From Obrimoposthia wandeli (Eukaryota), in assembly GCA_977020255.1 (NCBI GenBank), contig CDROCS010004434.1, positions 62,001-126,000 on the forward strand: 64,000 nt of DNA, read 5' to 3'. Below are positions 3,981-64,000 of this stretch, one piece after another. The notes beneath the pieces are model-generated. The model saw nothing but the letters and a program-made list of their open reading frames with translations, was not told the origin of the DNA and did not search any database. The translations under genes and the position numbers were made by a program. How positions within the stretch are numbered: position 1 is the stretch's first letter; each line of letters begins with the position of its first letter.

Positions 3981-4099
3981 ACAAAGAGATCATCAAAGAA
4001 CAGAAAAAGAAGATGAAGAACTGAGTCTAATCAAAGAATTGTTGGTGAAAGGAGATCTAAACGATGAAATGACGAAAAATACTCGATAAAAGAAGGAAT

Positions 4100-5300
4100 C
4101 TTGTATATTGTCAATAATGTCGGAAAGATAGTAGTAGTAATTCCGAAGTCATTGGAAAACAGCAGTGATGATCCAGTATCACGACGGAACACTAGGAGGT
4201 TTACATCTGTCAGGGCGAAAGACAATAGCCAGAATCAAAGAGAAGTACCATTGGGATGGTATGGAAGACGACATAAAACAATGGTGTAAACAATGTAAAG
4301 TATGTTTAACCAGAAAAGACACCGGAACTCGTACTAAAGTTCCGTTGAAACCAATGCCAGTTCCCTTGGCACCAATGGAATTCACAGCGATGGATATATT
4401 GGGACCATTGAGAGAATCAAGTAAAGGAAACAAGTATGTCATAGTATTTACGGATTACATGACGAGATGGGTAGAAGCATATCCCATGCAGAACCAGAAA
4501 GCTGAAACAATAGCGCAAATCTTAGTGGAAGAGATAATATTTCGATACGGAGTGCCTAGAAAGTTGTTAACGGATCAAGGTAAGAACTTCACTGGAGAAG
4601 TCATAAAAGCAGTATTGAAGATATCTGGAATTATGAAGTTACAAACTTCACCATATCATCCACAGACAGATGAATCGGTGGAAAGGTTTAATAAAACTTT
4701 ATGTATGATGGTGACAATCCTATTGCTCAGATAAGCAAGAGGATTGGATAAATATTTACCTTCATGTTTATATGCTTACAGGAATTAGTTCGAGAGGCGA
4801 CAGGTCACACACCATTCTATCTGATGTATCTCAGACAGAACAATATGCCAATGGATCTGGGACTGAGCCAACATCTCAGTACCTAGAAACTGAACAATAC
4901 ATTGTCGTCATGAAGGAAAGATTACAAGATGCTTGGACCAAAGCCGGATTGAAGTTGAAATTCAATCAAGAAGGTTACAAGGAACAATACGACAAAAAGC
5001 AAAACCGCATGAATTTAGAGCCGAGATCAAGTGATGATATTTTATCCAGTCATCGAACCAGGTCTATCGTTTAAACTTCATAGACCATATAAAGGACCAT
5101 ACAAGGTGATCCAGACAACCTCAACAAATTTGAAAGTAATCAACGAAGAGAATCGGAACAAGGAACCGATGATTGTACATGCAAATCGATGCAAATTAGT
5201 ACCAAATAAAGATAATGCGTCACGATATGAGTTAAGATCACAGAAATCGAAATCGAATACCAATACCATTAAACTTACACTATTAATGAATGGTAAGTGA
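4100..5300 (+). pseudogene. Gypsy integrase (HHCC zinc finger, DDE core, GPY/F tail), frameshifted
   Basis: HDGTLGGLH...CKQC, AMDILGP, LTDQGKNF, VERFNKTL and RPYKGPY are all present. Confidence 0.92.
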
Positions 5301-5354
5301 TCGGAACTACATAAACATGATGACGAGTGGTGGCGAAGAAAACCAGAGAACGGT

Positions 5355-10496: not shown

Positions 10497-10620
10497 TGAG
10501 TCAGGAGGAGGTTGTAGATAAATTAGTGTGTGAAATATGTAGAAATATCTAGAAGCGATTGTACAAATAGTAGAAGTATATAAAACTCATGTAGAAATTA
10601 ATCATCATCATGTATTTAGA

Positions 10621-10920
10621 ATGGCCGAAGAATGCCCAATATGTTTGGAAGATCTAACCGAACGAAGAACAAGACCCGAAACCTGCAACCATTTACACCA
10701 CGAGGAATGTTTATCGACATGGATCAGAACTTATGGACAGTTCGGACACCCAACATACCCTCGTTGCCCTGTATGCAGAAGACAATTCGCAAGATTCGTC
10801 ATGTTAGAACCCAACCAAGAGGATGTATATGTACAGGTGGTATTCTGTTGGAAGAATTTCGGAGAGTGTTGGTGTTATTACTGTTTGTCAGATCGACAAA
10901 ATCAGACCACTTTTGTGTAA
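10621..10920 (+). CDS. Small RING-H2 putative E3 ligase, copy 1, with C-terminal CWK..CWCxxC motif
   Basis: CPIC...CNHLHHEEC...W...CPVC pattern. TATATAAAA at ~10577 and TTTAG immediately 5' of the ATG. Confidence 0.8.
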   Translation: MAEECPICLEDLTERRTRPETCNHLHHEECLSTWIRTYGQFGHPTYPRCPVCRRQFARFVMLEPNQEDVYVQVVFCWKNFGECWCYYCLSDRQNQTTFV

Positions 10921-10980
10921 ACATCACACAACCACCAGTCCTCAATCGAGCCCAAATTCAACATCAACCCTCCCACAGTA

Positions 10981-11310
10981 ATGTCTGGAGAATGTTCCAT
11001 CTGCTACGAGAGCATCGTGGACTTCTACACCAAGCCCAACAACTGCGACCACCTTTTCCACGTCGAATGCCTCGAGACGTGGATCCCCATCGCAAACAGC
11101 AACAATCCCCTCGACTTCCCAACCTGCCCGATGTGCAGAGCGACTCTTCTCAGTACACTACGTGTACAACCAAGACAGCCTCCAAGCAGTGGTACCCATC
11201 GTACACTGCTGGAAAACCATCTGCGATTGCTGGTGCTCGTTCTGCGTGGAGGAGCGAAGCACAGGCCAGCCCAATCCCCAACAATAATCGAAGGTAACTT
11301 TCTGACTTGA
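10981..11310 (+). CDS. Small RING-H2 putative E3 ligase, copy 2; C-terminal Cys motif is frameshifted
   Basis: CSIC...CDHLFHVEC...W...CPMC pattern. An alternative frame at ~11190-11260 reads VVPIVHCWKTICDCWCSFC, matching the copy-1 tail. Confidence 0.78.
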   Translation: MSGECSICYESIVDFYTKPNNCDHLFHVECLETWIPIANSNNPLDFPTCPMCRATLLSTLRVQPRQPPSSGTHRTLLENHLRLLVLVLRGGAKHRPAQSPTIIEGNFLT

Positions 11311-11627
11311 ACGTGACATCATGAACTACCCTGTGTATCGCATACCGCGATAAATTAGCTACCATAATTGTAATCATAATTATATAATCTTGTGAACTGT
11401 AAATTGACCATTACCATTTTTATGTATGATGTTTAACTGAAATTGTAATTATTATACTGAATTTCTAAAAAAGACAATTTTTATGCTTAGTGTGAATGCG
11501 TAAACATGCCTAAAATCTAAACAAAACTCGGTAGGATTAGATAACTAAGGATTCATTTTGAAATAAAATTTAAATTAACGATGAGAACGGTGAACCCCAA
11601 ATTGAAAGGAGTTATTTTCTCATGCAG

Positions 11628-12112
11628 ATGAAGTGCGCTGTATGCATGGAGAAAATTTGGGCGGTATCAGCATCCCCTGTCGGCTGCCGCCACAAATTTC
11701 ACGAATCCTGCCTATATACTTGGGCCCGACTTCGACCCGAAGGACATGTCAATTTTTGCCTTTCGCGGAATGGACACTACAGTGTCGAGGGCGCCACAAG
11801 GGCACCCATTCGCTCACCAGCTGTATTGGTGGCGAGCACTGCCATTGCCCCGACTGTATCGCACGCCGTCGCGATGCAAAACTCGCCCTCCGCGAGAAAT
11901 ACCGGTCAACTCGCGACCCCCGCTCATGGCAGCGTGGCCGTCAAATATGGCTCGGAAATCGCGGAATACACGGGCGATATACTACCATTTTCCACCCGAG
12001 TCAACACCTCACCATGCGCCAGCAAATGTTACTATACAATGGCGGCCCACCATCGTATCCGGAACTACCACTGGAGCAGGTCTTGCTGTTCCTGAAGGAC
12101 AGGAACGGTTGA
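11628..12112 (+). pseudogene. RING-H2 protein, copy 3, frameshifted
   Basis: MKCAVCMEK...GCRHKFHESCLYTW, then a frameshift near 11755 into the frame with HCHCPDC that ends at 12112. Confidence 0.7.
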
Positions 12113-13050: not shown

Positions 13051-13600
13051 AAAAAGTGAACCAATATTCGAGAACCAATAGTTTGAAATATCATTGACCA
13101 ATATTTGAAATATAAAAAGTGAACCAATATTCGAGAACCAATAATTGAAATATCATTGACCAATATTTGAAATATAAAAAGTGAACCAATATTCGAGAAC
13201 CAATAGTTTGAAATATCATTGACCAATATTTGAAATATAAAAAGTGAACCAATATTCGAGAACCAATAATTGAAATATCATTGACCAATATTTGAAATAT
13301 AAAAAGTGAACCAATATTCGAGAACCAATAGTTTGAAATATCATTGACCAATATTTGAAATATAAAAAGTGAACCAATATTCGAGAACCAATAATTGAAA
13401 TATCATTGACCAATATTTGAAATATAAAAAGTGAACCAATATTCGAGAACCAATAGTTGAAATATCATTGACCAATATTTGAAATATAAAAAGTGAACCA
13501 ATATTCGAGAACCAATAATTGAAATATCATTGACCAATATTTGAAATATAAAGTGAACCAATATTCGAGAACCAATAGTTGAAATATCATTGACCAATAA
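13051..13600 (+). repeat. Tandem array of ~9 copies of a 62/63-bp unit, each with three CCAAT motifs
   Basis: Anchor GTGAACC at 13056, 13119, 13181, 13244, 13306, 13369, 13431, 13493 and 13553. Confidence 0.95.
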
Positions 13601-16529: not shown

Positions 16530-19500
16530 TTTACACAAATGTCGAAAACATGCCAAAACTTGGTTGAGTCACTTCCGGTTCGTTATTTACCTTAGGTACG
16601 ACTTCATCCAAAGAAGTGCTGAGAATGATCGTTCGATTGTGGCCTTGGTATGGCATGCTAAGATAATGTAAATCAATGACCATGTCACTGATGAGTGTCA
16701 GTGATGCTTGTAACATAGTTTAATCCCCAGTTATTTGCCTAATCATAAATGCATCATCATATTTCTTTACTCCATAACTTTTTTCAAATGTCTGGCTACA
16801 ACGATTTCTGATTCAAAATGAATCGACATATGCTAAACAACTAAAACACTTGTCAAAAGGCAATCAATAAACAATACATTTATTATTATTACTCATATTA
16901 TTTATTACTACACCTGCCATTTATTATACACATCTCCTGATAACTTTATTTAAATTGTTTTTTATCATTTAGAAAAGTATATTATAATTGATCATTACGC
17001 AATAATATGTTTACTTTCATTATTCAACATACTATCAAGATACTAAGCAATTATAACACCTATAAAAAATGGATACAGTTTTTCATTATCAATATTTTAC
17101 TTATGAATAAAACGTTGATTAACCACCATTTCTCTATCACTATCATTTGAGACTTTAAGCCAAGAGTAATTCTTAATTCTCTTCATAATGACTCCATGTA
17201 CAAATTTATGTTGTTTCCTGAATGTAACTACTATTTTATCCTCTGACATACTCTTTGCATGTACTTATATTCCTATAATCGAATTTTTCTTCTTTTACTA
17301 CAATGTTAAACAATTTTAGTCTCATTTAATACTAATATGTCATCGACATAACAAATGACCTCTTTTAAACCGTTTAGAATATGCTCCATCGATTTCTGAA
17401 ATACGTCTGGCGTAGAGCTTAATCCAAATAGCAACTTATTGTATCTATATCGTCAAAATGGTATACAGAATACCAGATACTTCCGGCTCTCATCATCCAC
17501 GAGGATTTGATGATAACCCTTATTTGTGTTAGGATTAGGAATTTAATAATTTTCAAAATAATTAATTATTAAATAGTAAAATAAATCCTTGAAAGCAAGG
17601 ACCGAATCGGATAACAGAGGCCTAGCTTGCTGCACCAGTAAAATCGCGGTGAGAATTGTGCGTCATAAATTGCTTATCATTTATTAGTCCGAAAGATATA
17701 AATTGCTTATCATTTACTAGTTCGAAAGATATAAATTGCTTATCATTTATTAGTCTGAAAGATATAAAGTGAACCCTTATCATTTATTAGTCCGAAAGAT
17801 ATAAATTGCATATCATTTATTAGTCTGAAAGATATAAAGTGAACCCTTATCATTTATTAGTCCGAAAGATATAAATTGCTTATCATTTATTAGTCTGAAA
17901 GATATAAAGTGAACCCTTATCATTTATTAGTCCAAAAGATATAAAGTGACCGTTATTATTTATTGAAGCCGAACGTCATAAATTTATCGGTTCTATAAAA
18001 TCAACCCATATTTTTAGAGCAACCAGCTCTCTAAAATCTACAACCTTAAATTGACCATATTTTTAGAGTAAAGAAACGACCCTCAATTAAAATCGATACG
18101 TGGATCATCCCCACTAGTGTAGAGACTTTGTGCAAAGTAACTAGGATTAGTATTATTGTTTTTAGAACGTGTTAGAACGTAATTTAGTGTGTCTTAGAAA
18201 TAAAGATTTCCTACATTAGGCAGTGTTGTATTGAACAGAACCCTTGCAAGCAAGTAGGTGTCAACTACTCCATATACAACACCACACTAAGGGAATTTTG
18301 CAGTAACCGTATACACAGCTCTTCACACATTTCGCAACACATAGACATAATAAACCTTCAGATAGAAATTGAGATAGGCAAGCTCAACTTAAGTAGGCCA
18401 CAAACAGCTACAAGCCCTGCTTCTATAGAACTCACGTTGGGGCCCTCCATTCAAGAGGATCTATCTGAGAAGTTTCATATAGAAACCCCAACATTTGTGT
18501 CCTTGACTAAAAGAAAGCACTCAATTTAATTTAACCATTATTTCGGGAAAATGTGGCATTTGAAAATTATGGCATACATAGCCTCATATCTCCATTTTCT
18601 TGATTACTGGTATGAGTGAAGAACACCATTCATAGCCTATTACCTCTTCTATTAATTTATCTAGTTCCTTTTTCACAGATTTTTTATAGCTGATACTGTA
18701 CGTCTTGGAGCATAGCATTTTGGCTCAATTAATTTATTTTAATTTTATGCTTAATATTCCTAATGCAGTTACTCTTTACCCGGTCATCTTTCAGGAATGA
18801 AACGGAACACACTGGTAATGTAATTAAATGCAAGTCACAGCATAACTCTGCACTTAACTAAATAATATCTGAATTAACCGACATCCCATAAAATTCGGTA
18901 TTTACACTTTTTTCTTAATAAGTTACAGTAAAGTATTATACCCCAATAATTTTAATTTGTGATTATTATACGTAGTTAATCTTACTGTGGATGGTTTCCA
19001 TCTCATATCCGGGGAAAACTTTACTGGCATTATGTTTACGATAGCCCCTGTATCAATTTCACACATCAGTATTTTTTATTTATATTTAATTTACATTTTT
19101 ATAATTTACGCCTAACTTGTTAAATATTTTAAATTCTCTCAGTCACCGTAATTTTATCCTTAATAAACAAAACTTCTCACAATGGCTTACTTTACCGCAT
19201 TTATACCATTTAAAACTCTTTGTTCTACAATATGAATCATTTGCTAAATGTTTTACCGATCTGTAACGGAAACATTTAATGTGCATATTAGATTGATCAA
19301 ACTTACCAAAATTATTACCTCTTTTCTCATAAGGTTCACTATTATAAGGGACATTTCGTTTTATTGCATTTATATTACTATCAACTTTAGTGCCATTAAC
19401 ATATAAACAATCACCGCATCTAGTTATAAATACGCTTTCATACGCTTCAGCTTGTTATCGCACATTTTAGATTTATTTTACTAGGGTCCTCTCACATCAT

Positions 19501-21895: not shown

Positions 21896-24069
21896 CAGTG
21901 GTTCTCAAACTTTTTTAAAAAATATGCTTTGCGGTCCATTTGAAATTGCGTACCCGGCCAACGGACCCCTGATCAGTAATATTGATTAGATATATTTAAA
22001 TAATAAAAATTTAAGTACATTGTCCATGAACATTAAAAAGAATAAATTTTAATATTTAATTTTGTAATGAATGATGAAAATTATAATTGTAATTTAATGA
22101 AAACGAAAATAATTAATGAGATGGATGTTCTTGCTTACCATTTGATAGTTCAGTAATTCTTGGTTCTGTTTTAGATAGAGCACATCGTAAGTCATCGCAA
22201 ACATAAAGTCTGTTTATGGATTTTGTCTTTGTATGGACAAGTGCTGAAAATGCTGCCTCACATTCGTAAGTTGTTGGAAACGGCATGAGTATTCGAAAAA
22301 CCATTTTTGAGATATGAGGATAGCTCTGTGCCATTGCTACCCAAAATTCAGTTGTCGAAACTTCTCTAAACTTCATTTTGGCTGAACCATCATTGATAAG
22401 TTCTATGAATTCTTCTTGAACCACCAATTCATCAGTTGGTATCATTTCACCATCAAAATTGAACGGATTTATTATGAGTTCATTGTAGATATCAGCATCA
22501 TTTAGTGTAGGAAATTAGCGAGAGATCTCATCTTTAAGAGTAGAAAGGTGCTCTTTGATTGCTTCGTGCAAAGGATTATCAGCAATAATTGTTATGTTTG
22601 TTTCATCCAAGTATGAATTGAATATAGGAAACATAGCATAATTACTTCGTGCAGTCTTCTTTATCCAGAGTTCAATTTTCATTTGAAATGCTTTAAATTT
22701 TTCATTGCAGTCGATGACAGTAATATTCTTTCCTTGTAAGGACAAATTAAGAACACCCAATGCTTCAAAGATGTCCACAAGATAAGCCATTGAAGACAAC
22801 CAAGCAACATTGCTGAATTTTTTGTGCAATGCATGATCAGAATTTTCCAGAAATACTTTTATTTCACCACGAAGTAAAAATGCTCGCTTTAATGCTTTAC
22901 CTTTCGACAACTACCTCACATGTGTGTGTAACAGTAGTGTCTCGAAGTCAGCACCATTTTCATTGCATAATGATGCGAATAGACGACTATTGAGAGAATT
23001 TGCTTTTATGACGTTGATTGCTTTTATAACTTCATTCATCACAGTCTTCAAATGATCAGGTAATGTTTTAGCAACCAGAGCTTGTCGATGTATGGTGCAA
23101 TGAATTCCAATCACTTTTGAAGATCTCTCCTTCACAAGAGTCTGAAATCCAGATCTACATCCTACCATTGTAGGTGCACCATCTGGGCAAACTTCACACA
23201 AGTTTTCCCACTGAAGTGAATGTATTTCAAAGAAATTTACAACTTTCGTAAAAACTTCCTTGGCTGTAGTTCTGGTTTCAAGATTTTCACAAAAGAGGAA
23301 TTCATCTTCGAAATCTCCATTATATATATAGCGCACAAATACACAGAGCTGTGCAAGATTTGCTATATCTGTGGTTTCGTCGATCTGTATTGAAAATAGT
23401 CCAAATTTTGATTCTTTGATTTTTCCAACAACTTGTTCAATAATATCATGTGACATAACTGTGTCGTTAGACAACGAAACCATTTTCAATTTTGTACTAA
23501 CATCTTCATCAAGAATAAGTGAGATAATATCTTTGCAAGCTGGAAGAATTAAGGTCTCACCAATGTTATGTGGCTTTCTGGATCTTGCAATTCTCTGTGC
23601 TACTCGGTAGGAAGCTTCAACACCAGCTGCATTAGATGTAGCTGCATCTCCTTTTGAATCAAACCTTGATCTTACCAAATGTGCTTCAAGCCGTTTGAAA
23701 TAATCTATATATTTTCCATTGTATTTCTTGTGCTTCGTTTCCAGATGACGTTTCAGTTTACTTGGTTTGAGAGATGATTCTGAAAGTACTTCAAAACAGA
23801 CAACACATTGTGGCTTTACCACTTCTCCCTGGGCGATCTCAGTAAATCCAAATTGAATGTATGACTCGTTATACTTTCTCTTCTTGCTGTCCATGTCTAG
23901 TGTCTAAAATCAACGAGAATGATAATGAATAAAAAGAGAAGATTTAAATCAATATTATTATTGACAAACAGTTAAAGCTTACAAAGTTGAATATAATTTT
24001 TTGTCACGGACCCCCTATCTTACTGTCACGGACCCCTGGGGTCCGCGAACCCCACTTTGAGAACCACTG
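21896..24069 (-). mobile_element. hAT (Buster/Charlie-type) DNA transposon with disrupted transposase
   Basis: 14-bp TIR CAGTGGTTCTCAAA at 21896 and 24056-24069. Flanks GACTAGAT/CTTTAGAT resemble a diverged nnnTAnnn TSD. ORFs 22911-23894, 22515-22910 and 22113-22445 carry the CVVC...RHLETKH zinc finger, IDETTD, DGAPTM and CEAAFS. Confidence 0.92.
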
Positions 24070-24507: not shown

Positions 24508-32187
<7,680 letters not shown>

Positions 32188-45661: not shown

Positions 45662-48600
45662 AGTTATGTAATCAGAAACCGGAATTATCTTACTTTCGAT
45701 AATTTGTTAGGGAACTGATATTTTATAATCAGAATATAAATTGTGTTGTGAAATCTAAGATTTGAATTATGTCTACGATAGAAAACATAACTGGCGATCA
45801 CGCCGAAATAAATGTAATGACGAGAAGTCAATCAAAGAAGAATATCCTCGAGACTATGCCTAAAGAACAAAGAATGATGTTCCAGTATAACATAAGAAGA
45901 TACGATGGAATGAGTTCAAAGGAAGGTGAACAATGGTTAAAGGATATAGGAGAATGGGTTGACGCAAATCAGATTAATATTGGAGATGCATTTAAGTTGC
46001 TGTTGACCGAAGATTATTATGAATAGATGCCAGTGAAAGATTAAATTCAGATATCGAAGTCAAAAATATGGTTTGAAGAAAATTTCCTAGAAAGGAAATC
46101 CATAGTTGACAAAGTTTGCGAACTTGCAGACGTAAAGCAAGTAGAAGGTGAGCGTTTCTCAGCGTTCAGCATTAGAGTGAAAAAACTCGTTGATGCTATG
46201 ATGGAAAATAATGTTAGCAAAGATGAGCTGACTGACGCATTAAGATAGAGTAAGAAGTGAAGACCTAAAGGAGCAGTTTTTATTAAAACCAATGATGCCA
46301 AAAGAAGAAATTAGAGGCGATGGCAAAGCTGTACAGCGAAATCGAGAAAAGAATACCGTGATTGCACAAATTCATAATACGTATGCAAATACAGTAAAAA
46401 GAGAATTCAACCGTTCTGACAACCGTCATTTCACAAACAATACAAAGAAACCAGTATCAGTACCAGTACATCAGGAACAAAGAAATTATGTTAATGAATA
46501 AAAAGGATACATAAATAGAGACGCCAAAAATCAAAATAATAGGAGACCAATGCCAAGGTTTTCTTTAAAATAAATAGCTAAAAGAAAATATAACTTAGCT
46601 AAGGGACTGCCTGTCACAAAAAGTAAAGAACTTCAACCAGGAAGATGTTTTTGTTGTGGTGAAAAAGGTCATTTTCGAAATCAATGTCCTCTCAATCACA
46701 AATGTTTGATTTGCGGAAAAGAAGGTCACAATTTCAACAGCTGCTAAATTTTAAAGAACCTACATCAAACTACAAGAGTACTTTGTATAACAGAAGAAGC
46801 GAAAGGAAATAATCAAAATTTAGAAGATTGTAATAATGATGACATGATAATACATTATGTTAATCAGGGATACGTGAGCGATCCCATTGCTCCCATTTCG
46901 TCGGTGGGATCGAGCATATAGAACCAAAGCGGAATGAAAAGATGTATATGAAGAATGATGGTCGTGAATGGAGTATAATGAAGATTAATGATGTAGATGT
47001 AGAAATGCTGTGGAACTCCGGAGCATCAGTTAATGTAATGAGTAAGAATTGTTGGAAGAAAGTAGGATGTCATAAAATGAGACAGAGTAATTTATATTTG
47101 AGTGGAGTTTTTTTCGAATAATCATGAACAGCCTTTATCATTACTAAATTGTTATGGAATGGAAAGGAGAATGTTTTGGAAATAATCTTTGTAGAAGAAA
47201 TTAAACCAGAATTTATTGGTGTAATCGATACAATGAAAACATTTGGAATAAAGCTGCAGGAAGTATGTAATATGGACTTGTCTTGCATGATGAAAACGTT
47301 TTCCTCGAATAAAGAACATATAAAATATGTAATTCTTTAAAATGCGATAGAGACTCAATTTTAGGACATTATATTGTGAAATTTGGGAGAATATTTATGT
47401 GTTCTAAATTTGATCTAGGATATACCAAAATTGTCTCTCATAAGATTGAGACTATTGCCAATCCTATGTGCCAAAATTCTAGATGACAACCGATGCTTTT
47501 AGAAAACCAAGTTGATGAAATGATTGAAAATGTACTCAATGTAAACGTAATTAGGCGTTGTGAAAGTCCTTGGAACTCGCCATTGGTCATTGTGAAGAAG
47601 CTAGACAATACAATTCGAATGTGTGTTGACTACAGACAATTGAATGCTGTAACCTAGAAGTTTACATTTCCAATACCGGATGCACAACTCTTGTTCGATT
47701 CTATAGGTGATGCTAAAATATTTACGACATTAGATATTGGACAAGCTAATTTTCAGGTAGATCTAGAGAATGAGTCTCAGGGAAAAACGGCTTTCAGTAC
47801 AAAATTAGGACGATTTTGTTTCAATCGCATGCTATTTGGGTTGGCTACAGCACCGGCAACATTCCATAGTTTTGGGGTAAAATATTGTATGGTTTGTTGT
47901 TCAAAGGAACAATTGTATATCTAGATGATATCGTTGTTTATAGTAACAACCAAGAAGAACATTATAAATTATTAAGAGGTATTCAAAAGAATTGCAGCAG
48001 CAGGCCTTAAAATAAACCCTAATAAATGCTACATTGACCAGAAACAGTTAAAATTCCTAGGTCATATCATAACAGAAAGCGGAATACATACAAATCAGTC
48101 GAAAGTCAACGAAATTATAAATTTTAAAGAACCAGATTGTAGTGAAAAATTAAAATCATTTTTAAGAATGGCAAACTATTATCGACGATTTATTAAAGAT
48201 TATGCAAATATTTCAGCTCTACTATATGTAGCGGGGTCTGGAGATAAGAAGTCAATACAAACAAGTTTTGAACTCCTGAAAGAAAAATTAACAACAGCTC
48301 CCATATTAGATTTCCCCAGGTGAAATAGAAAATGTATAATTGATACAGACGCAAGCTTTGGTGCGATTGGGACAGTTTTGAGCCAACTGGATGAAATGAG
48401 AAACGAAAAAGTGATTGTGTACGCTTCAAGACATTTGACTTTCCCTGAGAAAAGATACTGTGTTACCAGAAAAAAACTTTTAGCAGTATACGAATTTATT
48501 ATGCATTTCAAACAATATTTATATGGAACTGAATTTTTGGCAAGAACACATCATAAAGCATTAGTATTTTTAAGAACGACTAGAAAACCAATCAGTCCTC

Positions 48601-51406
48601 AATTTCAAACATGGTTGACAAATTTATCAGAATTCAATTTTAAATTAGAACATCGTAAAGGTATTGACCATGGTAATGCCGATGGTATGTCAAGATTGAA
48701 TGAAACAGTATGTGATCAGTGTGTAACTAAACATATAGAGAAGAGATATAAAATAAGATATATTCACTCACTAAATAAAGACAACTTCTTGAGTAAGATA
48801 AGGAAAATATAACAAGAAGATTATAAAAAGTGAAAGAAATGAACGTTTTCATCCATCTGGAAAGTAAGGATTTATCAGAAGAATGCAAAATAAGTGAGAT
48901 TTATCAGATAAAAGAGAAACTCAAACTCCGCCAGGATATTCTTTATTTTAAACAAAATTTTACGTCATTTATGGAAGAAAAAAAAATTAAAGCATCAAGT
49001 GCAACGACAAAAAATAAAGAAGATATCATTCAAGACGTAAGGAAGAACCAACAAATCGTAGCTGAAAAGTTAAAGAAATTAGATAATGAAGAGAAGAGGG
49101 GAAAGGATATTTGAAGTAAATGAATAGGTGCTTGTTAAAAAGGATCCAATTAAAAGAAGCAAGAATAGTGACCAGTTTGAAGGCCCATATAGAATAAAAT
49201 AATTTTCGAGTCCATGACAGGTATTAATTCCGTTTCTAAGAAGAATCCTACCCAGGAGAATCGAATTGTTGAAGAAGTGCTAATTTGAATAGGGAAGGAG
49301 AAAGTTATGTAATCAGAAACCGGAATTATCCTACTTGCATTTATTTGTTTAAGTATTATTATTTAAACCTTTATAATATAAATTGTGTTGTGTAATCTAA
49401 CTCTTGAATTATGTATCCAATAGAAAACATAACTGATATTATTCACCTTTTAGTTTATACCATAATTATTCGTCAACTACAAATCGTTAAATTGTTATTT
49501 TGGTTTAAAAAACGTGTTTTCTGATCATGTTGATATCTAAAAAAAATCTGAAAATGTTTAATTACATTTTCGTAAAAAGTTAACATATTTAGACAAGAAG
49601 TTTACTATTTTGTTAAAGGGAAAAAAAGTTATTTTTTATTACGCAGTGTTATTATTAAAAATGTAAAATATATCTGACGAATTCATACATAATAGAAAAT
49701 GTATAATTGATACAGACGCAAGCTTTGGTGCGATTAGGACAGTTTTGAGCCAACTGGATGAAATGAGAAACGAAAAAGTGATTGTGTACGCTTCAAGACA
49801 TTTGACTTTCCCTGAGAAAAGATAATGTGTTACCAGAAAAAAACTTTTAGCAGTATGCGAATTTATTATGCATTTCAAACAATATTTATGTGGAACAGAA
49901 TTTTTGACAAGAACACATCATAAAGCATTAGTATTTTTAAGAACGACGAAAAATCCAATCAATCCTCAATTTCAAGTATGGCTTGCAAATTTATCAGAAT
50001 TCAATTTTAAGTTAGAACATCTTAAAGGTATTGACCATGGTAATGCCGATGGTAGGTCAAGATTAAATGAAACATTAAGAAACATTATTAAGATAAGGAA
50101 AATTCAGCAAGAAGATATTCATGTGAATGAAATGAAAGTTTTCCTCCAACTGGAAAGTAAGGATTTATCAGAAGAATGCAAAATAAGTTGGATTTATCAG
50201 ATAAGAGAGAAACTTAAACTCTGTGGGGTTATCCTTTATTTTGAACAAAACTTTACAGATTTAATTGTCATACCTCCGAAAAACGCTAATGAAATTATTA
50301 ATGAAATTCCCCAATATCTTTGTCACCTAGGAATACAAAAAGTTTATAACTATATGAAAGATAACTTTTATTTAAAAGGAATGTTTCAAGAAATAAAAGA
50401 ATGTATATCAAAGCGCGTTTACTGTTCCAAAAGGAAATTTTAAACAAGCAGAACAAAATAAATATATATTGCTCTAATCAAAGAAATTTTTTAGATCAAA
50501 TAGTTATCGATATAGCTCACATGAAGGAAGGAAGATCTAAATAGAAATATATGTTGATAGTAATCGATCGATTTAGTAAACTGGTATCACTATCAGCAAC
50601 CTCGAAAGAAGATGAAATAACAATTACTAAAGCCCTCCAGACAAATTGGACATATAAATTTGGAAAACCTAATAGAATTTTAACAGATAGAGGACGAATA
50701 TTTACTGGAAATTATTTTCAGAATTGGCTAGGAAAATTTGGTATTGAACAAGAGCTTACAGCACCTTATCAACACCAAGCTAATGGTCTATCAGAAAGAG
50801 TTATATGCACGGTAAGAGATATGATTGTAATGGCAATAGCGTCTACTAAAACAGGAAAATGTTGGCACGATTTATTGCCACAAATTGAATTTGCTATAAA
50901 TGCAACAGTAAATAGTTCTTCAAAACATTTACCGTTTGAGGTTATTTATGGAAAATAACTTCAAGCATCAAATACAACAACAAACAATAAAGAAAATATC
51001 ATTCAAGACGTAAGGAAGAACCAACAAATCGCAGATGAAAAGTTAACTAAGTTAGACAATGGAAGAAGAGGGGAAAGGATATTTGAAGAAAATGAAAAGG
51101 TGCTTGTTATAAAGGACCCAATTAAAAGAAGCAAAGATAGTGACCAGTATGAAGGCCCATATAGAAAAATATAATTCTTGAGTCCACGACAGGTATCAAT
51201 TCAGTTTCCAAGAGGAATACTTCTCAGGAGAATCGAATGGCTGAAGAAGTGTAAATTTGATTTGTTTAGGGGAAAGTTATGTAATTAGAAACAGGAATTA
51301 TCTTTACTTTTGATAATTTGTTTAAGAGCTGATATTTAATAATCAGAATATAAATTGTGTTGTGAAATCTAAATCTTGAATTATGTCTACGACAGAAAAC
51401 ATAACT
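45662..51406 (+). mobile_element. Decayed Gypsy element with three ~131-bp LTRs (45662-45792, 49303-49434, 51275-51406)
   Basis: LTR termini AGTTATGT...ACATAACT. PBS TGGCGATCACGCC overlaps the first LTR by 1 nt. Purine tracts precede LTR2 and LTR3. 5-bp TSD GTTAT (45657-45661 and 51407-51411). Two CCHC knuckles at ~46650-46745, plus RT, RH and INT relics. Confidence 0.9.
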
Positions 51407-51919
51407 GTTATAATTACAGGTATTTTTCAATTTTTATTAACAAAATTAAAATTATTTTAAAGATAAAAATGTTTGGAAGATAATTGTAGAATACAAACTG
51501 TTATGGGCAAGAGGCATTTTGTGATAAAAATTATTTTTTAACATTTAATTTTTTTAATATTAAATAAATATTTTAAAATTTTTGGATCAAAAGTTAGTAA
51601 GTTATATGTTTTATCTGTTTGTGTAAAAGTTGTACGAAAAATTGAAATTGACTGTATAGCATAATATTTAATATAAACTGTAGATATTGCAGCGTAATTA
51701 GTAAATTTAAATAGTGAACAAAATTTCTAATATATTTTTACTTGCACATAATTTATAATACATTTTAAGATATGTTCTTCTCGTTATTCAATTAAATCAA
51801 AGTAATTACATTTTAAAAATACGGTATTTTATGTATTCGAAAATAATATTTGTTCATGCTTAGCACAGCTTTTGTTTAAATATTCGTTATTTACGTAATT
51901 TTTAAAAATATTGAACGTT

Positions 51920-53709
51920 ATGGCAGACACTAAATTATCAACTGGATTTTCGTTATTAACTATTGATGATAACCCTGATGGATGGGGTCCTTATACAGTC
52001 CCGGAAAAATTTGCAGATCTTCCTTATCAGCCATTTAATAAAGATATAAAATTAGGCAAATTTGCAGATTGGACAAGCAATTATAATCCTGACTTACGGA
52101 AGAAGATGGATAAAATGAATAATATGAATTATCAAGGAAATCAATATGCATATGTACATGAAGATGATGAAAGTACTTTCCATATGGTCAATACTGTTAA
52201 AGATCAGAAATCGAGCTTTTTAAAGCAGAAGAACAAATTTGCTGCCAATAGAACCCGCAGAGAAAAGGTCGCTCAGAAACAACAGCAACAACTCGAACAA
52301 CAATCTCGCTTAGGATTGACTAAGAAACAGAAGTTTATAAATAGAGAAAGGCAACAAGATATGAGAAGGATTAATAAGCAACATGGTCGCTTAAATAATG
52401 CTACCGGATGGGGTAATGATTATCGTAGACAAGCTCGAATTCATAGAGAGGCTTCGGTTCAAGTTAAAGATACATGGAAAGTAGTTGAGGAGATCGAATT
52501 TAGTCGATTCAACAAACTATCAATGATCCTCTCAGAAGAACCAGAAGATCTTTATACTTGTGGTGAATTAAGATATTATGATAAGAATCACGACAGAATT
52601 ACTACACATAATACACAGAAATTGAAACTTATGAATCGCATAATTCATAATGTTGCCACTGGAGATGATCCTATAATTCGTAAATTGGCTAGTGAAAAGG
52701 CTGGAAATGTTTTTGCTACCGATGCTTTAATATCGGCACTTATGTGTTGTACACGTTCTGTTTATTCTTGGGATATTATCGCCCAGAAAGTAGGAGATAT
52801 TCTTATTTTAGACAAAAGACCGGGCAATAACAATTTCCATTTTGTTACTGTAAATGAAACTGCAAGTGAGCCTCCAGTTGAAGATTCGAATAATATTAAT
52901 TCTTCTAGCAGTTTGTCACTGGAAGCTACATTTATAAACCATAACTTTACCCAACAAGTTCTTCAACAGGTAATTGGTGTTTTAATGTATTTTAAATAAA
53001 ATAACTCTTTAAATATTTTATTAATTCTATTTATTTTCAGAAAACATTTGCCTTCGATAATCCGAATCCATTCTTGGATGAAGACGAGGACAAATTAAAC
53101 CTGGGTTCAGTGGGTTATCGATATAGAAAGTTTAACCTTGGTAACGATATCAAATTGGTCGTGCGATGTGAACACGATGCGGTTATAGAGCGAGGACAAA
53201 CCACCGATGCTGACTCAGATACAGTCGCTTCTACTCAACCTCAATTCATGACCGTGCGTGCCCTTAATGAATGGGACTCGCGCATGTGTGGTGGTATTGA
53301 CTGGAGAAACAAATTAGATGTACAGCGTGGTGCCATTCTTGGAGCAGAAATAAAAAACAATTCATACAAGTTGGCTAAGTGGACCCTAACAGCTTTGCTG
53401 AGCGGCAGTGACCAGATGCGTTTAGGATACGTGAGCCGAGAGAACTGCAAAGCCAATAGCAGCCACACCGTTCTTGGAGTACAGCAGTTTAGACCCACCG
53501 AATTTGCGTCACAGATCAATCTCAAGATGGAAAACGCCTGGGGTGTTCTGCGCTCCATCATTGATCTAGTAATGAAGCTGGATGCCGGTATGTACCTCAT
53601 CATGCGTGACCCCAACAAGCCAGTTATGAGAATCTATGAGTGTCCCATGGATGCTTTTGAGGAGGATGCTGACGCCGACAGTGACGAAGAAGAGGACGAG
53701 GAGCAATAA
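51920..53709 (+). CDS. EIF3D: Eukaryotic translation initiation factor 3 subunit D; exons 51920-52969 and 53041-53709 (572 aa)
   Basis: [42 protein letters not shown] and LAKWT motifs. 71-nt GT-AG phase-0 intron. Confidence 0.97.
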
Positions 53710-57560: not shown

Positions 57561-58478
57561 TGATAAGTTACAAAAAATAACTAAATTGTATTTTCATATA
57601 ATTGAGTCTTTGTAATGATAAAGTCTTTTCTTCTTCAGAATAAATGTGTTAAAAGGATAATCAAAATAATACTGTTTTAAACTTATTCAAATTATTGTGT
57701 GTAATTGTTATGGTTCCACTAATAATATATAGTCTGTAGAGACATGCAGCAGGAAATCAGCGCTGGAGAAATGTCGGAGACAGAGAAATTGTGTCTTCTT
57801 TTGGCGACGCTTTTTCTAGTGCATAGATAAGAGGAGAAAGGGAGCGGTCATGGAGAAAACCACTTGTTATCTCCGGGGCAGGGAGACAGACTGCGGCATC
57901 TGTCAAAGGTCGAGGATAAATGGCAGCTTTTGGCAACTCGAACTGGGCTGACCGCGTATTTGGCATTTGTTGCTGAAGTAGACCATCTATACCGCTCACA
58001 CACCCATGCACAACAGGCAGCATAGTGAGAGAGAGGGATTGAAAATCAATAGGGCACAGCTACCAATCTAGATACAAGGGAGATTGAGACGGGAAGAGAT
58101 TACGGCTGCTGGTTGTCGAGGATAAACGATTGTAAGGATAATCCAGGCAGTCTGATCTGACGATGTCGGGAAAGCGGGGAACTGCATTGGGTAGTACGCA
58201 CACGAGTTGGATGGAAATAGATGCAGTTTGGGTTGGTTGAAGTGGCAGCATTTAAGAGTGGACACACCAGTCGACTGGGATTACCGAGAAGGATGATGAG
58301 GAAGGAATGTGGAGGAGAGGCCGCTGCAATCCGGGGAAGGCAGTCCGGGAAGGTGTGGAAGATGGGTGACTCTGCACAACCTGGGCGACTGTGTGCAGGT
58401 AAGTGCCCTTTATTTTTTATCTTTTATCTCTGACTTCGCGGGCATTTTGCCCACCGCGAAACCAGAGACAAATCCGCC

Positions 58479-58528
58479 GTCCCCCTGACGAGCCCGGCAG
58501 GGCGAAACCGGTTAAGCCGGTCGGGGAC
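58479..58528 (+). ncRNA. Minimal type I hammerhead ribozyme; predicted GUC cleavage after 58522
   Basis: Stem I GTCCCC/GGGGAC, core CTGACGA, stem II GCCC-GGCA-GGGC, GAAA, stem III ACCGG-TTAAG-CCGGT. All core nucleotides are present. Confidence 0.88.
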
Positions 58529-58855
58529 TGAACTAAATAAACTGATTATTAAATGCCAAAGTGCATTTCACTTACCCTAAAATATTTCCCTAATTAAGGA
58601 AATTTCTCTCGTTATTTCTTAATTAAGAAATAATTTAAATTTTTAAATTGTATTTTTATTTTTTAAAATTGTAATCCTAACAATCCTCCGGCTAATAAAA
58701 GTTCTGGCCTCAGAATTCAAATTTCCAGTAAAACACAAATAAAAATCAATTTTTCACAATTAAATTACTTAAAAATTGATAAAACTTTTAAACATTGAAA
58801 ATATTCTTGATAAAAATAGTAATACTTATTAATGAAGCAATAATAATACCTTAGT

Positions 58856-60013
58856 TTATACGTTGTCTACAATAAAACATTCATCGGAGTCGGAGTCGGA
58901 GTCTGTTATCTCACTTGGGATACTCAACAAATCGTTTAGACGAAATTCCTCCACCAGTCTATCTCTACGTTTTTCAAAAACTCGCTTGATATTCTTGGTA
59001 TCCTCTAAACATGTGTGAATCTTCTTCTGTGTTTCTTCTCCAAAATATTTTGATATCATTGTCTTTAATCCTATTTTTGGATGGTTATGGCCAAGTTCTG
59101 TTCTTATTTCAGTTGATGCACCCAGGTCCACGATTCTAGCAAAATGTTGTTTTTCTAGTCTTAATACTTTCAAATCATTTTCTAATCCTGCACCTATCAA
59201 AACATTTCCTACTAATATTGATTGTGCTTTTTCAATGACTTCCTCTGCATCAGTTTTTCCTGTCAAAGATTTTTCGGTGAAACCAGTTATAAACTTAACA
59301 TAATTTCGTATTCTTTCTCTTGGCGTTACTATTTCATGTAATACAATCTGATCTTTTTCATCTATGATTGTAATGCTAGCCAATGTTTGTTTTTTGTCTA
59401 CCGTGATGGCCATTTCGCAATCCATGAAATATTTAATTGGAGTTTTTGATATATTTGCATTTTCTAAAAACATTATTTTATTCGTTTTCCAGATTAACTC
59501 TATAAAAAATGTATTTCTTCTGGGACTAAATTTTAGGAGATATTCGCTTCTTAATTCTTTTTTATCAATGGTATAAGAATGATTTTGTAAAAACATGTTA
59601 CTTAATTTCTTTTCTTGTTTACTCATTAAATGGGCTCTTCCTTCTGCCACATGAATTTCTATTTCTTCTACGTCTTGTAAATCTCCTACTAATTCTGATA
59701 AATTTATTCTTACATTTTTGGTGTGGTGCATAGTAAAAATTACACTTTTTCTGCTAGTCTTTGTAATTTTTAATTTATTAGGAATATGCGTTTGGTCTTG
59801 GAATATCTGTTTTCCTTCTCCATTTTTAAAATATCTATTGCTATACTGTCTTAATCTTCTATATAGGAATTTCGCAAAAATGTTCATTGTTGGAGTGCAT
59901 AATGGTTCTTCCTCTAAACTATTGGTAAGGTCTACGACTGATGGTGAAAAATCGTCCAAACAACTTTCCCCTACAACTCGGATCCATTTCCGTTTGTTTG
60001 TTGAGAACTCCAT
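58856..60013 (-). CDS. DEDDh 3'-5' exonuclease (REX4/ISG20-like) with unknown N-terminal domain
   Basis: ExoI FMDCEM, ITGFT, ExoII IGAGLENDLKVL and ExoIII HTCLEDT. Intact 385-aa ORF. Confidence 0.85.
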   Translation of the reverse strand: MEFSTNKRKWIRVVGESCLDDFSPSVVDLTNSLEEEPLCTPTMNIFAKFLYRRLRQYSNRYFKNGEGKQIFQDQTHIPNKLKITKTSRKSVIFTMHHTKNVRINLSELVGDLQDVEEIEIHVAEGRAHLMSKQEKKLSNMFLQNHSYTIDKKELRSEYLLKFSPRRNTFFIELIWKTNKIMFLENANISKTPIKYFMDCEMAITVDKKQTLASITIIDEKDQIVLHEIVTPRERIRNYVKFITGFTEKSLTGKTDAEEVIEKAQSILVGNVLIGAGLENDLKVLRLEKQHFARIVDLGASTEIRTELGHNHPKIGLKTMISKYFGEETQKKIHTCLEDTKNIKRVFEKRRDRLVEEFRLNDLLSIPSEITDSDSDSDECFIVDNV

Positions 60014-60179: not shown

Positions 60180-60524
60180 TCAGGAATCATGTCCATAAAT
60201 AAAGTTTCGATTCCTGTTGGGAATAATGAGTCTGTCCATTAAATGTTGGGTCTGTGACTGCAGAGCTAAAATTACTCTCCGTTGAGAACTGATTCTATGA
60301 TAAAGATCATCAATTTTATGTGAATCAGATTTGATTATTTGTTCAAATTCATTCATTTCGATATTTTTACTGAGATTTTCTTCCACCAATCTTTTAATAT
60401 TCGATTTCAGTTTGTCATTTTGTTTTATCGTTTTTATAAAATAATCATCATGATGTTGTTTAATGTCTTGGATTTTTCTTTTTAATTTATGGCATTGACT
60501 GCAGACTTGAAATTTTTTGTTCAT
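60180..60524 (-). CDS. Small coiled-coil accessory protein with N-terminal CxxC
   Basis: CSQC followed by heptad-like L/I periodicity. Acceptor-like TAATTTAG lies 2 nt before the ATG. Confidence 0.5.
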   Translation of the reverse strand: MNKKFQVCSQCHKLKRKIQDIKQHHDDYFIKTIKQNDKLKSNIKRLVEENLSKNIEMNEFEQIIKSDSHKIDDLYHRISSQRRVILALQSQTQHLMDRLIIPNRNRNFIYGHDS

Positions 60525-60695
60525 TTCTAAATTATAGTTAATATATATTGTCGGGTCTTTATCCCGATATTTGGTTTTTTCTAAATTAAGTTTTTTACAC
60601 TTTTACAAATATCTATACACACATACATACTCATCCTCATCTAATATTTATTTGAATATTCTGTTTTAATTAACTCATAAAAATAATATATCTGT

Positions 60696-62228
60696 TTATT
60701 GTCTATTGATTTCGACAACTGTATTCATTGATACGTTTGATGAATTTAAAGAACTTGGTATTATTGATGTTATAAATGGTCCTGGAGGTTTATAAAATCT
60801 AATTTGACGAGTTGGCTTTGAATTTTTCTGATGTTTTCTCATTTTTATTTTCCATAATATTTTTATGGCAAGTATCAATATTTCAATTATTACTGTTGCC
60901 ATTATGATTTCTATTTCCCTTTTATGGTGTGAGTATTTTTGTTTATTATTATACATTTTATAGCTTGAATTTGTGGATTTGTACGATATAATTTTTGTTG
61001 TTTTTAAAATAAATTTAATTTTTTTAATTTTTATGGTTCCAATCTGACCTGTAGTTTTATAAGCTTCTGTTGTGAATTTTTTTATATGTAATATCTGTTT
61101 TGTACTTATTTCTTTGGTATATTTGTCAACTTTAATTACTGACCAATGACCACAATAAATTGTAGGTTGATATAATTTGGATATCTTATTTCCTAAAATT
61201 GTTAACTTTGTTAGGTTTTTAATAGTTTCAAACTGTTGCCCCCATTGTCTATACATTAATGGTTTGTTAGTGACTACGCATTCTCTATTATTCATGATTA
61301 ATTTGTTCGGATATCTAATATTTTTTATGGTTAAATTTGTTTTAGTTTGGGCTCTTTCCAATTGTTTTTCTGTATCTTTCCAAAAATGTGAATTTGGTCC
61401 TCTATATCTAATTCTTATGACTGCCTTATCCAAATCATCTATTTCAAGTTGAATTTTCCATTTTATCATGATACTGTATTTGGTTATATGTTTTGCCATT
61501 GTCTTCAAGACTGATGCCAAGTACATATGAGTTTCTATAATTCTTTCATAAAGTATTTAATTTGTTAAATTTGATGTAACTCTTATTTGGTATTGTGTTT
61601 CTGTTCTTAAAAATGGTATTGTGTATTTTTGTGATTTTATTCCGGAAATAATTATGTTTTGCCTTCTGTCTGTTTGTGTGATTTGTATATTTCCTGTTTT
61701 GTTTGTAAAAAGTGAAATTTTTAATTTTATTGATGTGATTTTAGGTATTATTGTAATTAAACCGAAATATTTTATTAGATGTGTTGTTGAGTCGTATTTA
61801 TTTACTAATTTATTATCATTTATGTCTGTTGTACTTACTTTATGTAAATTGTTATTTGTTATATAATATATTATAAGTAATATCATTATTTTTATGATTT
61901 CTTTTATCGATATTTTTATTGTATTTTTTATCTGATGATTTTTATTAATCTTATTTTGTTTCTGTGAGTTTTTTATTGTTAACATTTGTAAAACAGTATT
62001 ATCGTTAGTTGATCTCAGATTATATCTATGACTTTTTACTTTTGTATTTTCCTCAGGTACTTGACGACATCTATTTATATGTGCTCTTATTTCTTTTGAT
62101 CTAGGGTCATTGTCAAGTTTAGCGGTTATGTTAGTTCCGTTGGTACTAATGACTGTGTATGGTCCTTTGTATGGTTTTGATAGTTTGTGTGACAGACCTA
62201 CGCTGATTTGTGGATTGTGAATCATCAC
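60696..62228 (-). CDS. Integrase C-terminal tail extended into an env-like accessory region; one in-frame TAA at 61557-61559
   Basis: ORFs 61557..62228 and 60696..61526 share a frame, linked by ILYERIIETH. Hydrophobic segments IIKIMILLIIYYI and IIMATVIIEILILAIKILW. Confidence 0.6.
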
Positions 62229-63420
62229 TTTACTTCCATTTTTATGTTTGATGGTTTAGTTCTTCTATCATAGTATTCTTTGTAGTTTTCTTGTATGTTT
62301 TTTACAAATAATTTGGCTTTTTCAAAAGCTAGTTTTATTCTCTCTCTAATTTCTATTTTGTATTCTGGTATTTCTAAGTATTGAGTGGTGGGTTGTAATA
62401 ATGTTAAATCAATAGGCATCTGTGGGTCTCTGAGGAACATAAGGTAAAAAGGTGTTTCTCCTGTTGATGCATGTACTGATGTTCTATATGCAAAAAGGCA
62501 TGGAGGTATGTGTAAATCCCAATCTGTTTGGTTGTTGTTAGTGTATGATGCCATCATATCTTCGAGGGTTCTATTAAATCGTTCCACTAATCCATCAGTT
62601 TGAGGGTGATATGGTGTTGTGTTAATCTTTTTTATATGAAATATTTCAGCTATAGATGCTACCACATTATTTATGAATTCAGGACCTTTGTCAGTTAAAA
62701 ACTTTCGGGGTGCACCGAAAGTAAAAATTATTTTTTCGACTAAAACCTTCGCGATGGTTTCAGCCTTGTGATCTTGTGTTGGGAAAGCCTCTGGTGTTTT
62801 TGTAAAATAGTCGGAAAATACTATTATGTAGCGATTTCCTCGGGGTGTTTCAGGTAATGGTCCCATTACATCCATGGAAACGATTTCCATGGGGGCTGAT
62901 GGATAAGGTATTGGTTTTAAAGGAACTTTAGTGGTACGTAACGTGTTTTTTCATTTAAGGCATATTTTGCATGTTTTGCACCAATTTTTTACATCTTCTT
63001 TCATGTCGATCCAATAATATTTTAAGTTTAACCTTGAAAATGTCTTTTTTGATGATAAATGTCCACCTAGTGCTCCATTATGATATTGAAGGAGTAGTTG
63101 ACATTGTATGTCTTTCGGGATTACTAGTGAGTATAAATTTTTATCGTTTAAATAATATAATATTTCATTACTATATTTATATCGTGTTTCGTGAATTTTT
63201 AAGTGTTTCCTTAATTTTTCATCTGTTGGAATTTCGTCTATGCTGATGTATTTAGCTACCTGTTGGATTTCAGTATCTTTACTTTGAAGTTCTGTAATTA
63301 CTTTTTCGTCGTATCTAGCTTTTATTATTGTAAAAAGATTAGATGCTGAATCGTCAGTATTTAACATATTTATATCATCTCTTATTCTAGATAAGCAATC
63401 TGCATTTGCATTCGATTTTC
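62225..63420 (-). pseudogene. Integrase zinc finger and DDE core of element 2, frameshifted
   Basis: ORFs 62951..63367 and 62225..62890 carry the HHCC and D-D-E motifs. Confidence 0.92.
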
Positions 63421-64000
63421 AGTAGGTGGATGTGTCCGGTCTAATCCACACCCCCTCCCCCCTTGTCCTTTAAAACCGTGTAGGTGTGTGGAGTGAAATT
63501 TCGTGCATGTGTGTGGAGTGAAATTTCGTGTAGGTGTGTAGAAAAATTTTCTAACCCCCCCCATCCTAAACACTCAAAAAAAGAAAAAAAAAGAAAAAAA
63601 ATTAACTCCATTTAACACCCTGTAAATTTAAAAATCTCATAATGCTCCCAAAATTTTGATTAAGGTCCTGAGAGGCCAAAAAATTGGCAAAAGCGTGCCC
63701 TACGGGCCTGCGGTGGATCAACGAGTAATAAATACAGGCTCGCGAAAAAATTTTCCTTATAAAAATTTATATCCATACATATATACAAGGTCATAAAAAA
63801 ATATTTTTTTATAAGAATTTATAAGAAAGATACATATATAGGGTCACAAAAAATTTTTAAATAATCAACTACATAAATTCGAAATAATTTGCATTTTTAT
63901 TTGATGAGTCATCAAATTAGTCATCATGACCTTAAGTGATCTTGACCTCATGATGACCTAGACAACTGTGTACCCTTGACCTCATGATGACCTTAAATGA
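63421..64000. repeat. Terminus of an unidentified repeat that abuts the truncated element 2
   Basis: Abrupt junction within the Gly codon before KSNANADCLSR. Begins AGTAGG, has a duplicated GTGTGGAGTGAAATTTCGTG and repeated TGACC/GGTCA motifs. Confidence 0.45.

Follow-up and report, generated by a model that had tools for sequence, protein, structure and literature searches.

The window, which is the whole 64,000-nucleotide stretch of the Obrimoposthia wandeli contig CDROCS010004434.1 analyzed here, carries at 58856–60013 on the minus strand an open reading frame (ORF) for a protein of 385 amino acids, comprising a disordered N-terminus, a double-stranded beta-helix (DSBH) domain, a predicted DEDDh 3'-5' exonuclease and an acidic tail. 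This ORF very probably belongs, as its last accessory gene, to a giant Burro-like Ty3/Gypsy long terminal repeat (LTR) retrotransposon, most of which lies outside the window and for which "Burro-like" denotes a resemblance, not class membership. Related elements keep the exonuclease gene under strong selection, which suggests that it is used against host defences; the likeliest role is that of a counter-defence nuclease (probability about 0.5), with both its activity and its target predicted.

Exonuclease Domain and Catalytic Residues

All 385 codons of the ORF are open without interruption in the translation of the window. The exonuclease domain (residues 193–359; 58937–59437, minus strand) contains the ExoI D-x-E, the ExoII D and the ExoIII H-x4-D, with D198 and E200 in the DCE motif (residues 198–200), D280 at the end of GAGLEND (residues 274–280), and H333 and D338 assigned by alignment. 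The first-pass annotation had described all DEDDh residues as intact, and each of them was found; so were the other motifs it had listed, namely VVDLT (residues 26–30), NKRK (residues 6–9) and the acidic-hydrophobic C-terminus, DSDSDSDECFIVD, at residues 371–383. The acidic disordered tail (58859–58909, minus strand) has DSDSDSDECFIVDNV as its C-terminal end. The residues observed predict a 3'-5' exonuclease of the DEDDh type whose two-metal site is intact. Ala275 occupies the position at which the ExoII "GH" of REX-type enzymes has histidine.

Comparison of the ORF protein with the PDB by phmmer gave SDN1 as the best match (E 1.8e-8), followed by ISG20 (5.2e-4) and ISG20L2 (0.014). The isolated nuclease domain matched Pfam RNase_T (PF00929) with 30.4 bits at a cut-off of 24, while the whole protein remained below this cut-off; in the ESM Atlas the whole protein gave leads below 0.9 to RNase_T clusters and nothing better. 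The AlphaFold model has a mean pLDDT of 82.7, with values below 50 at residues 1–36 and 369–385, which contain both SUMO-interaction motif (SIM)-like sequences. ISG20 was at the top of the fold search with this model (Z 21.3, rmsd 2.0 Å, 161 residues), and DnaQ (Z 15.9), ExoX (Z 14.4) and RNase D (Z 10.3) were found further down. The nuclease is of the His type (DEDDh) and not of the RNase D-like Tyr type (DEDDy), RNase D scoring lower than ISG20.

N-Terminal Double-Stranded Beta-Helix Domain

Modeled alone, the region of about residues 46–175 (59489–59878, minus strand) adopted an AlkB/cupin-like DSBH fold with a pLDDT of 89. The first-pass annotation had overlooked this domain. Fold searches with this domain returned Ofd2 (Z 9.8, rmsd 2.9, 123 aligned) and ALKBH6 (Z 9.7), with prolyl hydroxylases and cupins tying with AlkB proteins at Z 8.7–9.1, and Foldseek gave weak cupin-type matches (best E 4e-4). 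Among viral models, matches comprised cupins and the replicase polyproteins of plant RNA viruses, which carry AlkB domains and supplied several of the top viral fold matches. The ESM Atlas contained no match for residues 40–180.

Four residues of the domain (Y51, P78, H121, and G125) are nearly invariant across the relatives. AlkB proteins and other 2OG-Fe(II) oxygenases bind iron through the triad motif HxD/E...H. This triad is absent from the DSBH domain of the query, as judged by alignment and not by coordinates, and of 32 rows only 5 contain an HxD/E string within the expected stretch, never at a conserved column. An active AlkB demethylase was rejected on account of the missing metal triad. 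For the N-terminal domain only the DSBH superfold is established by the models, and the domain is probably a non-catalytic module for binding a substrate or a partner. The pairing of DSBH and DEDDh is a domain combination covered neither by Pfam nor by the ESM Atlas.

Position of the Gene Within the Element

Upstream of the ORF, the same strand encodes the end of RNase H followed by a Ty3/Gypsy-type integrase (63418–62010). The RNase H end with the integrase zinc finger occupies 62951–63418 (minus strand, E 6.7e-18) and is followed by an in-frame stop at 62951–62953. The integrase core lies at 62225–62950 (minus strand, rve E 2.6e-11), and the C-terminal part of the integrase with a polyprotein extension at 61557–62255 (minus strand) is in a frame different from that of the core, the frame change being near 62240–62255 and a further stop at 61557–61559. 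Two more open frames separate pol from the exonuclease ORF on the minus strand: one of 286 amino acids (60696–61556), probably the polyprotein tail, with a single hydrophobic stretch (hydropathy 2.53 over 19 residues) and no Pfam match, and one of 140 amino acids (60180–60602), an accessory ORF or a polyprotein tail, with no significant Pfam match. Similarity to pol stops at 63418. The DNA at 63419–64000 is unrelated, contains short internal repeats, begins exactly where the pol similarity ends, and is probably a nested insertion.

Downstream, a candidate 3' LTR of about 977 bp with inverted termini TGTTA...TAACA (57706–58682, minus strand) begins 173 nt past the stop codon of the ORF. It is directly preceded by the purine tract GGAGGA (58683–58691, minus strand), a weak signal alone, which resembles the tract ahead of the LTR of another element in the window (about 10505–10515). 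A second copy of the candidate LTR was not found in the 64-kb window, so both the LTR and its boundaries are putative.

Base composition links the ORF to pol independently of gene order. The coding-strand AT skew is +0.12 to +0.34, and the strand is A-rich without a break from 63500 to 59000, that is, from pol through the ORF. The share of adenine at third codon positions is 47% for the ORF, 48% for the integrase and 43% for the second element of the window; in the host eIF3d exon, by contrast, these positions are 32% A and 43% T. Skew and codon use support the membership of the ORF in the element. The proposal of the first-pass annotation that an LTR retroelement carries the nuclease is thus upheld, with the ORF as an accessory gene, by its location 3' of the integrase on the same strand, the distance to the candidate LTR, and the shared A-rich codon use.

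A bystander host REX gene, or a retrocopy of one, located beside a decayed element could be suspected from the broken upstream pol and the single LTR seen. This possibility is largely refuted and very improbable in view of the element-type codon use, the strand skew and the place of the ORF between pol and LTR, together with the same layout in distant relatives and the existence of a family with its own clade and its own N-terminal domain. The intact frame itself needs no special explanation: by our estimate, 1.16 kb may well stay open next to 3.2 kb that have collected about three or four breaks. For the same reason, the intact ORF was rejected as proof of selection on the window's own copy. 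This copy sits in a decayed element and therefore need not be active today.

The window contains several other features. A second giant Gypsy element (683–12112, plus strand) encodes a BIR domain, protease, integrase and a 1713-aa ORF that includes a phosphatase of the dual-specificity type (E 1e-40); beyond the purine tract of this element, apparently inside its LTR, are RING-finger frames. A host eIF3d gene with a 350-codon exon is located at 51920–53709 (plus strand), and its product is 49–50% identical to the best named proteins (mollusc, nemertean, and annelid), 46% to that of Macrostomum and 78% to three further proteins. The zinc-finger-bearing transposase fragment at 22911–23894 (minus strand; zf-C2H2_12, E 9e-4) is presumably hAT/Buster-like. 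Duplicated blocks with a spacing of about 1.3–2.0 kb occupy 45690–51407 and include a third, decayed Gypsy RNase H-integrase fragment (49868–50443). Tandem arrays at 13051–13582, 17673–17985, and 26362–26571 have periods of about 62–63, 33–37, and 71 nt, respectively. Among sequencing runs, four DNA runs of a single study contained 55–59% of the sampled words, and none of the runs listed was of RNA.

Relatives and Phylogeny

An exhaustive protein search yielded 1197 proteins at E up to 0.001; among the best 150, which were examined, two matched the ORF protein over nearly the full length, with 31–34% identity. A word-indexed search found no homologue among 2279 candidates. A profile built from 15 N-terminal regions matched 28 of the 150 proteins at E <0.01 (15 of them by construction), the next score being E 0.76. 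Identity of the relatives is 21–35%.

The nuclease-domain tree comprised 155 rows, after 19 near-duplicates had been left out and 10 short or duplicate rows dropped earlier. Forty rows, representing the family, fall on one side of a branch with an SH-aLRT support of 89: 27 labeled by the independent N-terminal test, six by their place in a first tree, the query, and six proteins from the loci described below. The named REX4 proteins P0018 and P0029 lie across this branch, most cellular rows being unnamed, and a long-branch row labeled REX4 (P0056) joins the family with a support of 97. The family is not nested among REX4 proteins, and forms its own DEDDh clade with no special link to any cellular subfamily in the tree. 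Orthology to REX4 was rejected, and orthology to ISG20, the best fold match but with no named representative in the tree, is not supported. The earlier designation of the protein as ISG20/REX4-like holds for its fold and motifs and is not supported in the sense of orthology. The window's own subclade consists of P0001, P0002, and P0006, and its genomic context comes from this window alone.

The 19 family clusters examined are mostly from metagenome or run assemblies, with contigs of 1.5–25 kb and uninformative names. A member of the P0016 cluster recurs on contigs of 15.6–17.0 kb in 12 of the 15 listed records; a collapsed element may have this length. Searches of viral contigs for a relative that showed two family alignments, or the integrase, came back empty, and prokaryote genomes contained no relative.

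Genomic Context of the Relatives

Twelve loci of relatives were obtained in one scan. All originate from one metagenome assembly and therefore represent one data set. The exonuclease gene is a single open frame in each locus. Pol or gag is present on the same contig in three of them (L002, L009, and L006); the short contigs of the other nine lack any core retroelement gene. In L009, a polyprotein comprising RT, RNase H, integrase and ankyrin is followed by a paralogue and then by the exonuclease gene. In L006, the exonuclease gene is followed by an LTR-like stretch (about 3033–4614), a sequence resembling a tRNA primer site, and gag. Locus L002 codes for a polyprotein of at least 3207 amino acids in which a fusion protein of the mononegavirus type (PF24664, E 5e-94) precedes the protease in the same frame; this env-before-protease layout was observed in the relative, and the corresponding region of the window's element is missing. 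Across 120 integrase-bearing polyproteins, none had the exonuclease fused in frame.

A purine tract with TGT occurs 115–190 nt past the stop codon of the exonuclease gene in 5 of the 12 loci, the distance in the window being 173 nt. Genes for RING and TRAF/MATH proteins are located upstream of the exonuclease gene in L003 and L005, and the accessory cargo near the exonuclease in relatives also includes ubiquitin and ankyrin. A ubiquitin-like ORF (E 6.6e-7) lies downstream of the exonuclease gene at L010:4038–4625. In two subfamilies the exonuclease gene adjoins an ORF of 145–158 amino acids (L002:11571–12005, L003:4185–4637, and the upstream ORFs of L004–L006), which has no Pfam match, appears coiled-coil-like by eye and ends in a proline-rich PPxY-like motif.

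At the DNA level, L003–L005 are 74–84% identical to L006 or among themselves, and L007, L008, L010, and L011 share 70–74% identity with L009 in the nuclease part. Identity of the window's integrase is 57% to that of L009 and 52% to that of L002; its nearest relatives in the database are a tight group of 14 (54–62% identity) whose contigs reach 21.7 kb.

Selection and a Tandem Pseudo-Nuclease

None of the rows of alignment A1 that cover the five catalytic positions (19 or 20 of 21 rows) has lost any of them. Of 20 rows, 13 have D and 7 have E as the third acid, and 14 lack the ExoII His. The dN/dS ratios were obtained by simple counting over 16 active-copy pairs; for the nuclease domain they were 0.02–0.05 in the eight pairs with computable dS, several of which were near saturation, with 0.02 in the least saturated pair. 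The N-terminal part gave 0.04–0.30. The family is thus maintained as a protein under strong purifying selection.

At L009:6867–8246, L010:64–1434, and L007:2–607, the exonuclease has a tandem paralogue whose ExoI acids and ExoIII His are replaced. This paralogue is nevertheless under purifying selection, with a dN/dS of 0.09 in its N-terminal part, and a 13-residue acidic-hydrophobic motif at its end is identical in all three copies. The dead paralogue is a candidate pseudo-nuclease regulator or decoy, and the family offers a natural pair of active and dead genes.

SIM-Like and NLS-Like Motifs

The SIM consensus consists of a short hydrophobic core of the type (V/I)(V/I)DLT, usually with an acidic flank and in a disordered region. 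The VVDLT of the query (59924–59938, minus strand), followed by acidic residues in a segment with pLDDT <50, agrees with this consensus. The strict pattern [VI][VI]DLT appeared in 52 of 20000 shuffles of the ORF protein, the motif having been picked after the sequence was viewed. It is not conserved in the family: the strict SIM was found in 1 of 33 members (the query only), a loose SIMb in 2 of 33, a number that 30 of 300 shuffles reach, and a reverse acidic SIM in 7 of 33 versus 6.2 in shuffles. The SIM described in the first-pass annotation is thus a textbook match in the query, while SIMs as a family trait were rejected. Given that the relatives are just 21–35% identical, non-conservation is a weak test either way, and this lineage may possess a genuine SIM. 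The sequence NKRK does not conform to the classical nuclear localization signal (NLS) consensus K[KR]x[KR] and was rejected as such; the query contains no classical NLS.

Acidic tails are present in 22 of 25 rows. Four post-hoc patterns were counted in the tails, 16 of 41 rows having no usable tail; the loose pattern [VI][DE][LI][TSDE] was found in 9 of the 25 usable tails versus 4.0 in shuffles (17 of 1000 shuffles), the rows being related, and the other three patterns were not enriched.

These data bear on a variant of the counter-defence role, overlapping with it but adding a targeting step, in which SIMs would bring the enzyme to SUMO-rich nuclear silencing sites. The VVDLT with its acidic flank in a disordered end, the acidic tails with their loose pattern, and the invariant motif of the pseudo-nuclease copies speak for such targeting, while the scarcity of SIMs in the family and the three unenriched patterns, post-hoc and drawn from related rows, speak against it. 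The SUMO-site part of the earlier model relies on one motif in one copy, as SIM-like motifs are not family features, and targeting of this kind is unlikely.

Probable Function of the Exonuclease

Judging by the position of the ORF, the exonuclease would be a protein in its own right, probably translated from a subgenomic RNA. Being separate, it would most likely act on the host cell and not inside the particle. There it could destroy single-stranded nucleic acids that would otherwise alert or guide the host, the proposed targets being either small RNAs that act in silencing or RNA and cDNA by-products of the element itself. Degradation of silencing RNAs is plausible as a predicted activity. 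Counter-defence is favored because a free accessory protein among host-signaling cargo of RING, TRAF/MATH, ubiquitin, ankyrin, BIR, and phosphatase types most simply acts on the host.

The identity of the best PDB sequence match, the small-RNA nuclease SDN1, supports this role. The likeness to SDN1 is, however, generic, with ISG20 at the top of the fold search and the tree showing no link to a cellular subfamily. Two points of background count against counter-defence: REX-type DEDDh enzymes have many substrates, and the 2'-O-methylated ends of piRNAs resist many 3' exonucleases. In the available part of one account, arenavirus ExoN is described as a suppressor of innate signaling (PMC7968707). 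A further argument against is that the DEDDy ORF3s of rotifers have no clear link to copy number, according to the accessible text of the report (PMC5408684).

The main rival, with a smaller but appreciable probability, is a helper in replication. The nuclease would aid the reverse transcriptase by proofreading cDNA or by trimming primers or cDNA ends, enabling faithful copying of 20–30 kb elements as ExoN does for nidoviruses. The size of the elements fits such a role, as evidenced by the contigs that carry the nearest integrases and the polyprotein of L002, and so do the strong purifying selection on the family and the presence of DnaQ and ExoX among the fold matches. Terminons, which are other giant retroelements, also have DEDD nucleases (PMC6431247, in the part available), and ExoN has been tied to the growth of nidovirus genomes (PMC7968707, likewise in part). 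The separate 3' ORF argues against this role: fused to pol in none of the 120 polyproteins examined, the exonuclease would need an extra signal for packaging. Moreover, the nuclease belongs to the REX/ISG20 branch and not to polymerase proofreaders, the window's other large element has no such gene in the part present, and small LTR elements of rotifers also bear DEDD ORF3s. In a bolder, quite improbable version, a captured proofreader acting in trans let giant Gypsy elements exceed the size limit set by an error-prone RT, in parallel to nidovirus ExoN, with the DSBH domain as a clamp to the primer-template and the dead tandem copy as a regulator. Complex prediction for the RT-RNase H and the exonuclease of L009, run without alignments, was uninformative (score 0.00).

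Cargo for host physiology is a doubtful explanation. A REX4-like enzyme could perform 3' maturation or turnover of structured host RNAs (rRNA and snoRNA) and thereby help the carrier cell to grow or survive, and the nearest cellular relatives are indeed of the REX4, ISG20L2 and SDN types. Burro elements, as described in the available text, bear apoptosis and ubiquitin domains and one midasin-like region (PMC6431247). Against this, the long divergence from cellular enzymes, the frequent loss of the ExoII His and the new N-terminal domain suggest a changed targeting, and the query has no classical NLS.

Comparison With Known Systems

The protein shares its fold and the DCEM, GxxLxxD, and HxxxED motifs with ISG20, ISG20L2, REX4, and SDN1. 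It differs from them in an identity of only 17–20% in structural alignments, its own clade, the loss of the ExoII His in most members and the extra DSBH domain. SDN enzymes carry an RRM, which is absent from the ORF protein.

The closest parallel among retroelements is the DEDDy exonuclease ORF3 of the bdelloid rotifer LTR retrotransposons Juno and Vesta and of Terminons (PMC5408684, PMC6431247; both available in part), for which the same candidate roles have been proposed (PMC5408684). In both cases, as far as these texts show, a captured DEDD 3'-5' exonuclease is encoded by a separate ORF after pol, catalytic residues are kept and the function is unproven; the DEED variant is also common to both, corresponding to E at the third acid here. 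The rotifer enzymes are RNase D-like DEDDy nucleases, whereas the enzyme described here is of the DEDDh type and belongs to the REX/ISG20/SDN branch, and this family is therefore an independent capture. The DSBH fusion, the giant elements and the strong purifying selection further distinguish it from the rotifer ORF3s in the portions of these reports available.

In the Burro elements of planarians, an env in the same frame precedes the protease, and ankyrin, MATH/TRAF and BIR domains also occur (PMC6431247, available in part). Similar Burro/GYPSM1-like features are the fusion protein before the protease in L002, ankyrin in L009, the TRAF/MATH and RING ORFs in L003 and L005, and the BIR domain in the window's other element. 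The available part of the Burro account names no exonuclease (PMC6431247), and that of another paper mentions Burro without its domains (PMC13238120).

Orchid Gypsy elements encode an AlkB domain that is an active m6A demethylase (PMC9289625, available in part). What both have in common is that an accessory ORF of a large Gypsy element encodes a DSBH domain. Unlike the orchid protein, a close AlkB relative according to the same text, the domain here shows 5–12% identity; its fold scores for AlkB proteins are matched by those for cupins and prolyl hydroxylases, and the metal triad is missing. The arenavirus NP exonuclease and nidovirus ExoN are likewise host-derived DEDD nucleases of RNA-based parasites, serving immune evasion or proofreading, the two leading roles considered above; as described in the available text, they belong to other nuclease subfamilies with zinc fingers, and the parallel is an analogy only (PMC7968707).

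The literature searched, largely titles and abstracts, contained no report of a REX-type DEDDh nuclease or a DSBH-DEDDh fusion in LTR retrotransposons; an unpublicised exonuclease annotation may exist in Burro or Repbase entries. To our knowledge, no nuclease of animal retrotransposons has been shown to counter small-RNA or nucleic-acid-sensing defence, and no RT proofreader is known from them, in agreement with the literature search. The family provides a small, apparently soluble and strongly conserved enzyme for in vitro tests of both counter-defence and proofreading. It shows that invertebrate LTR elements have captured a DEDD nuclease a second time, independently, and such repeated capture suggests a recurring need.
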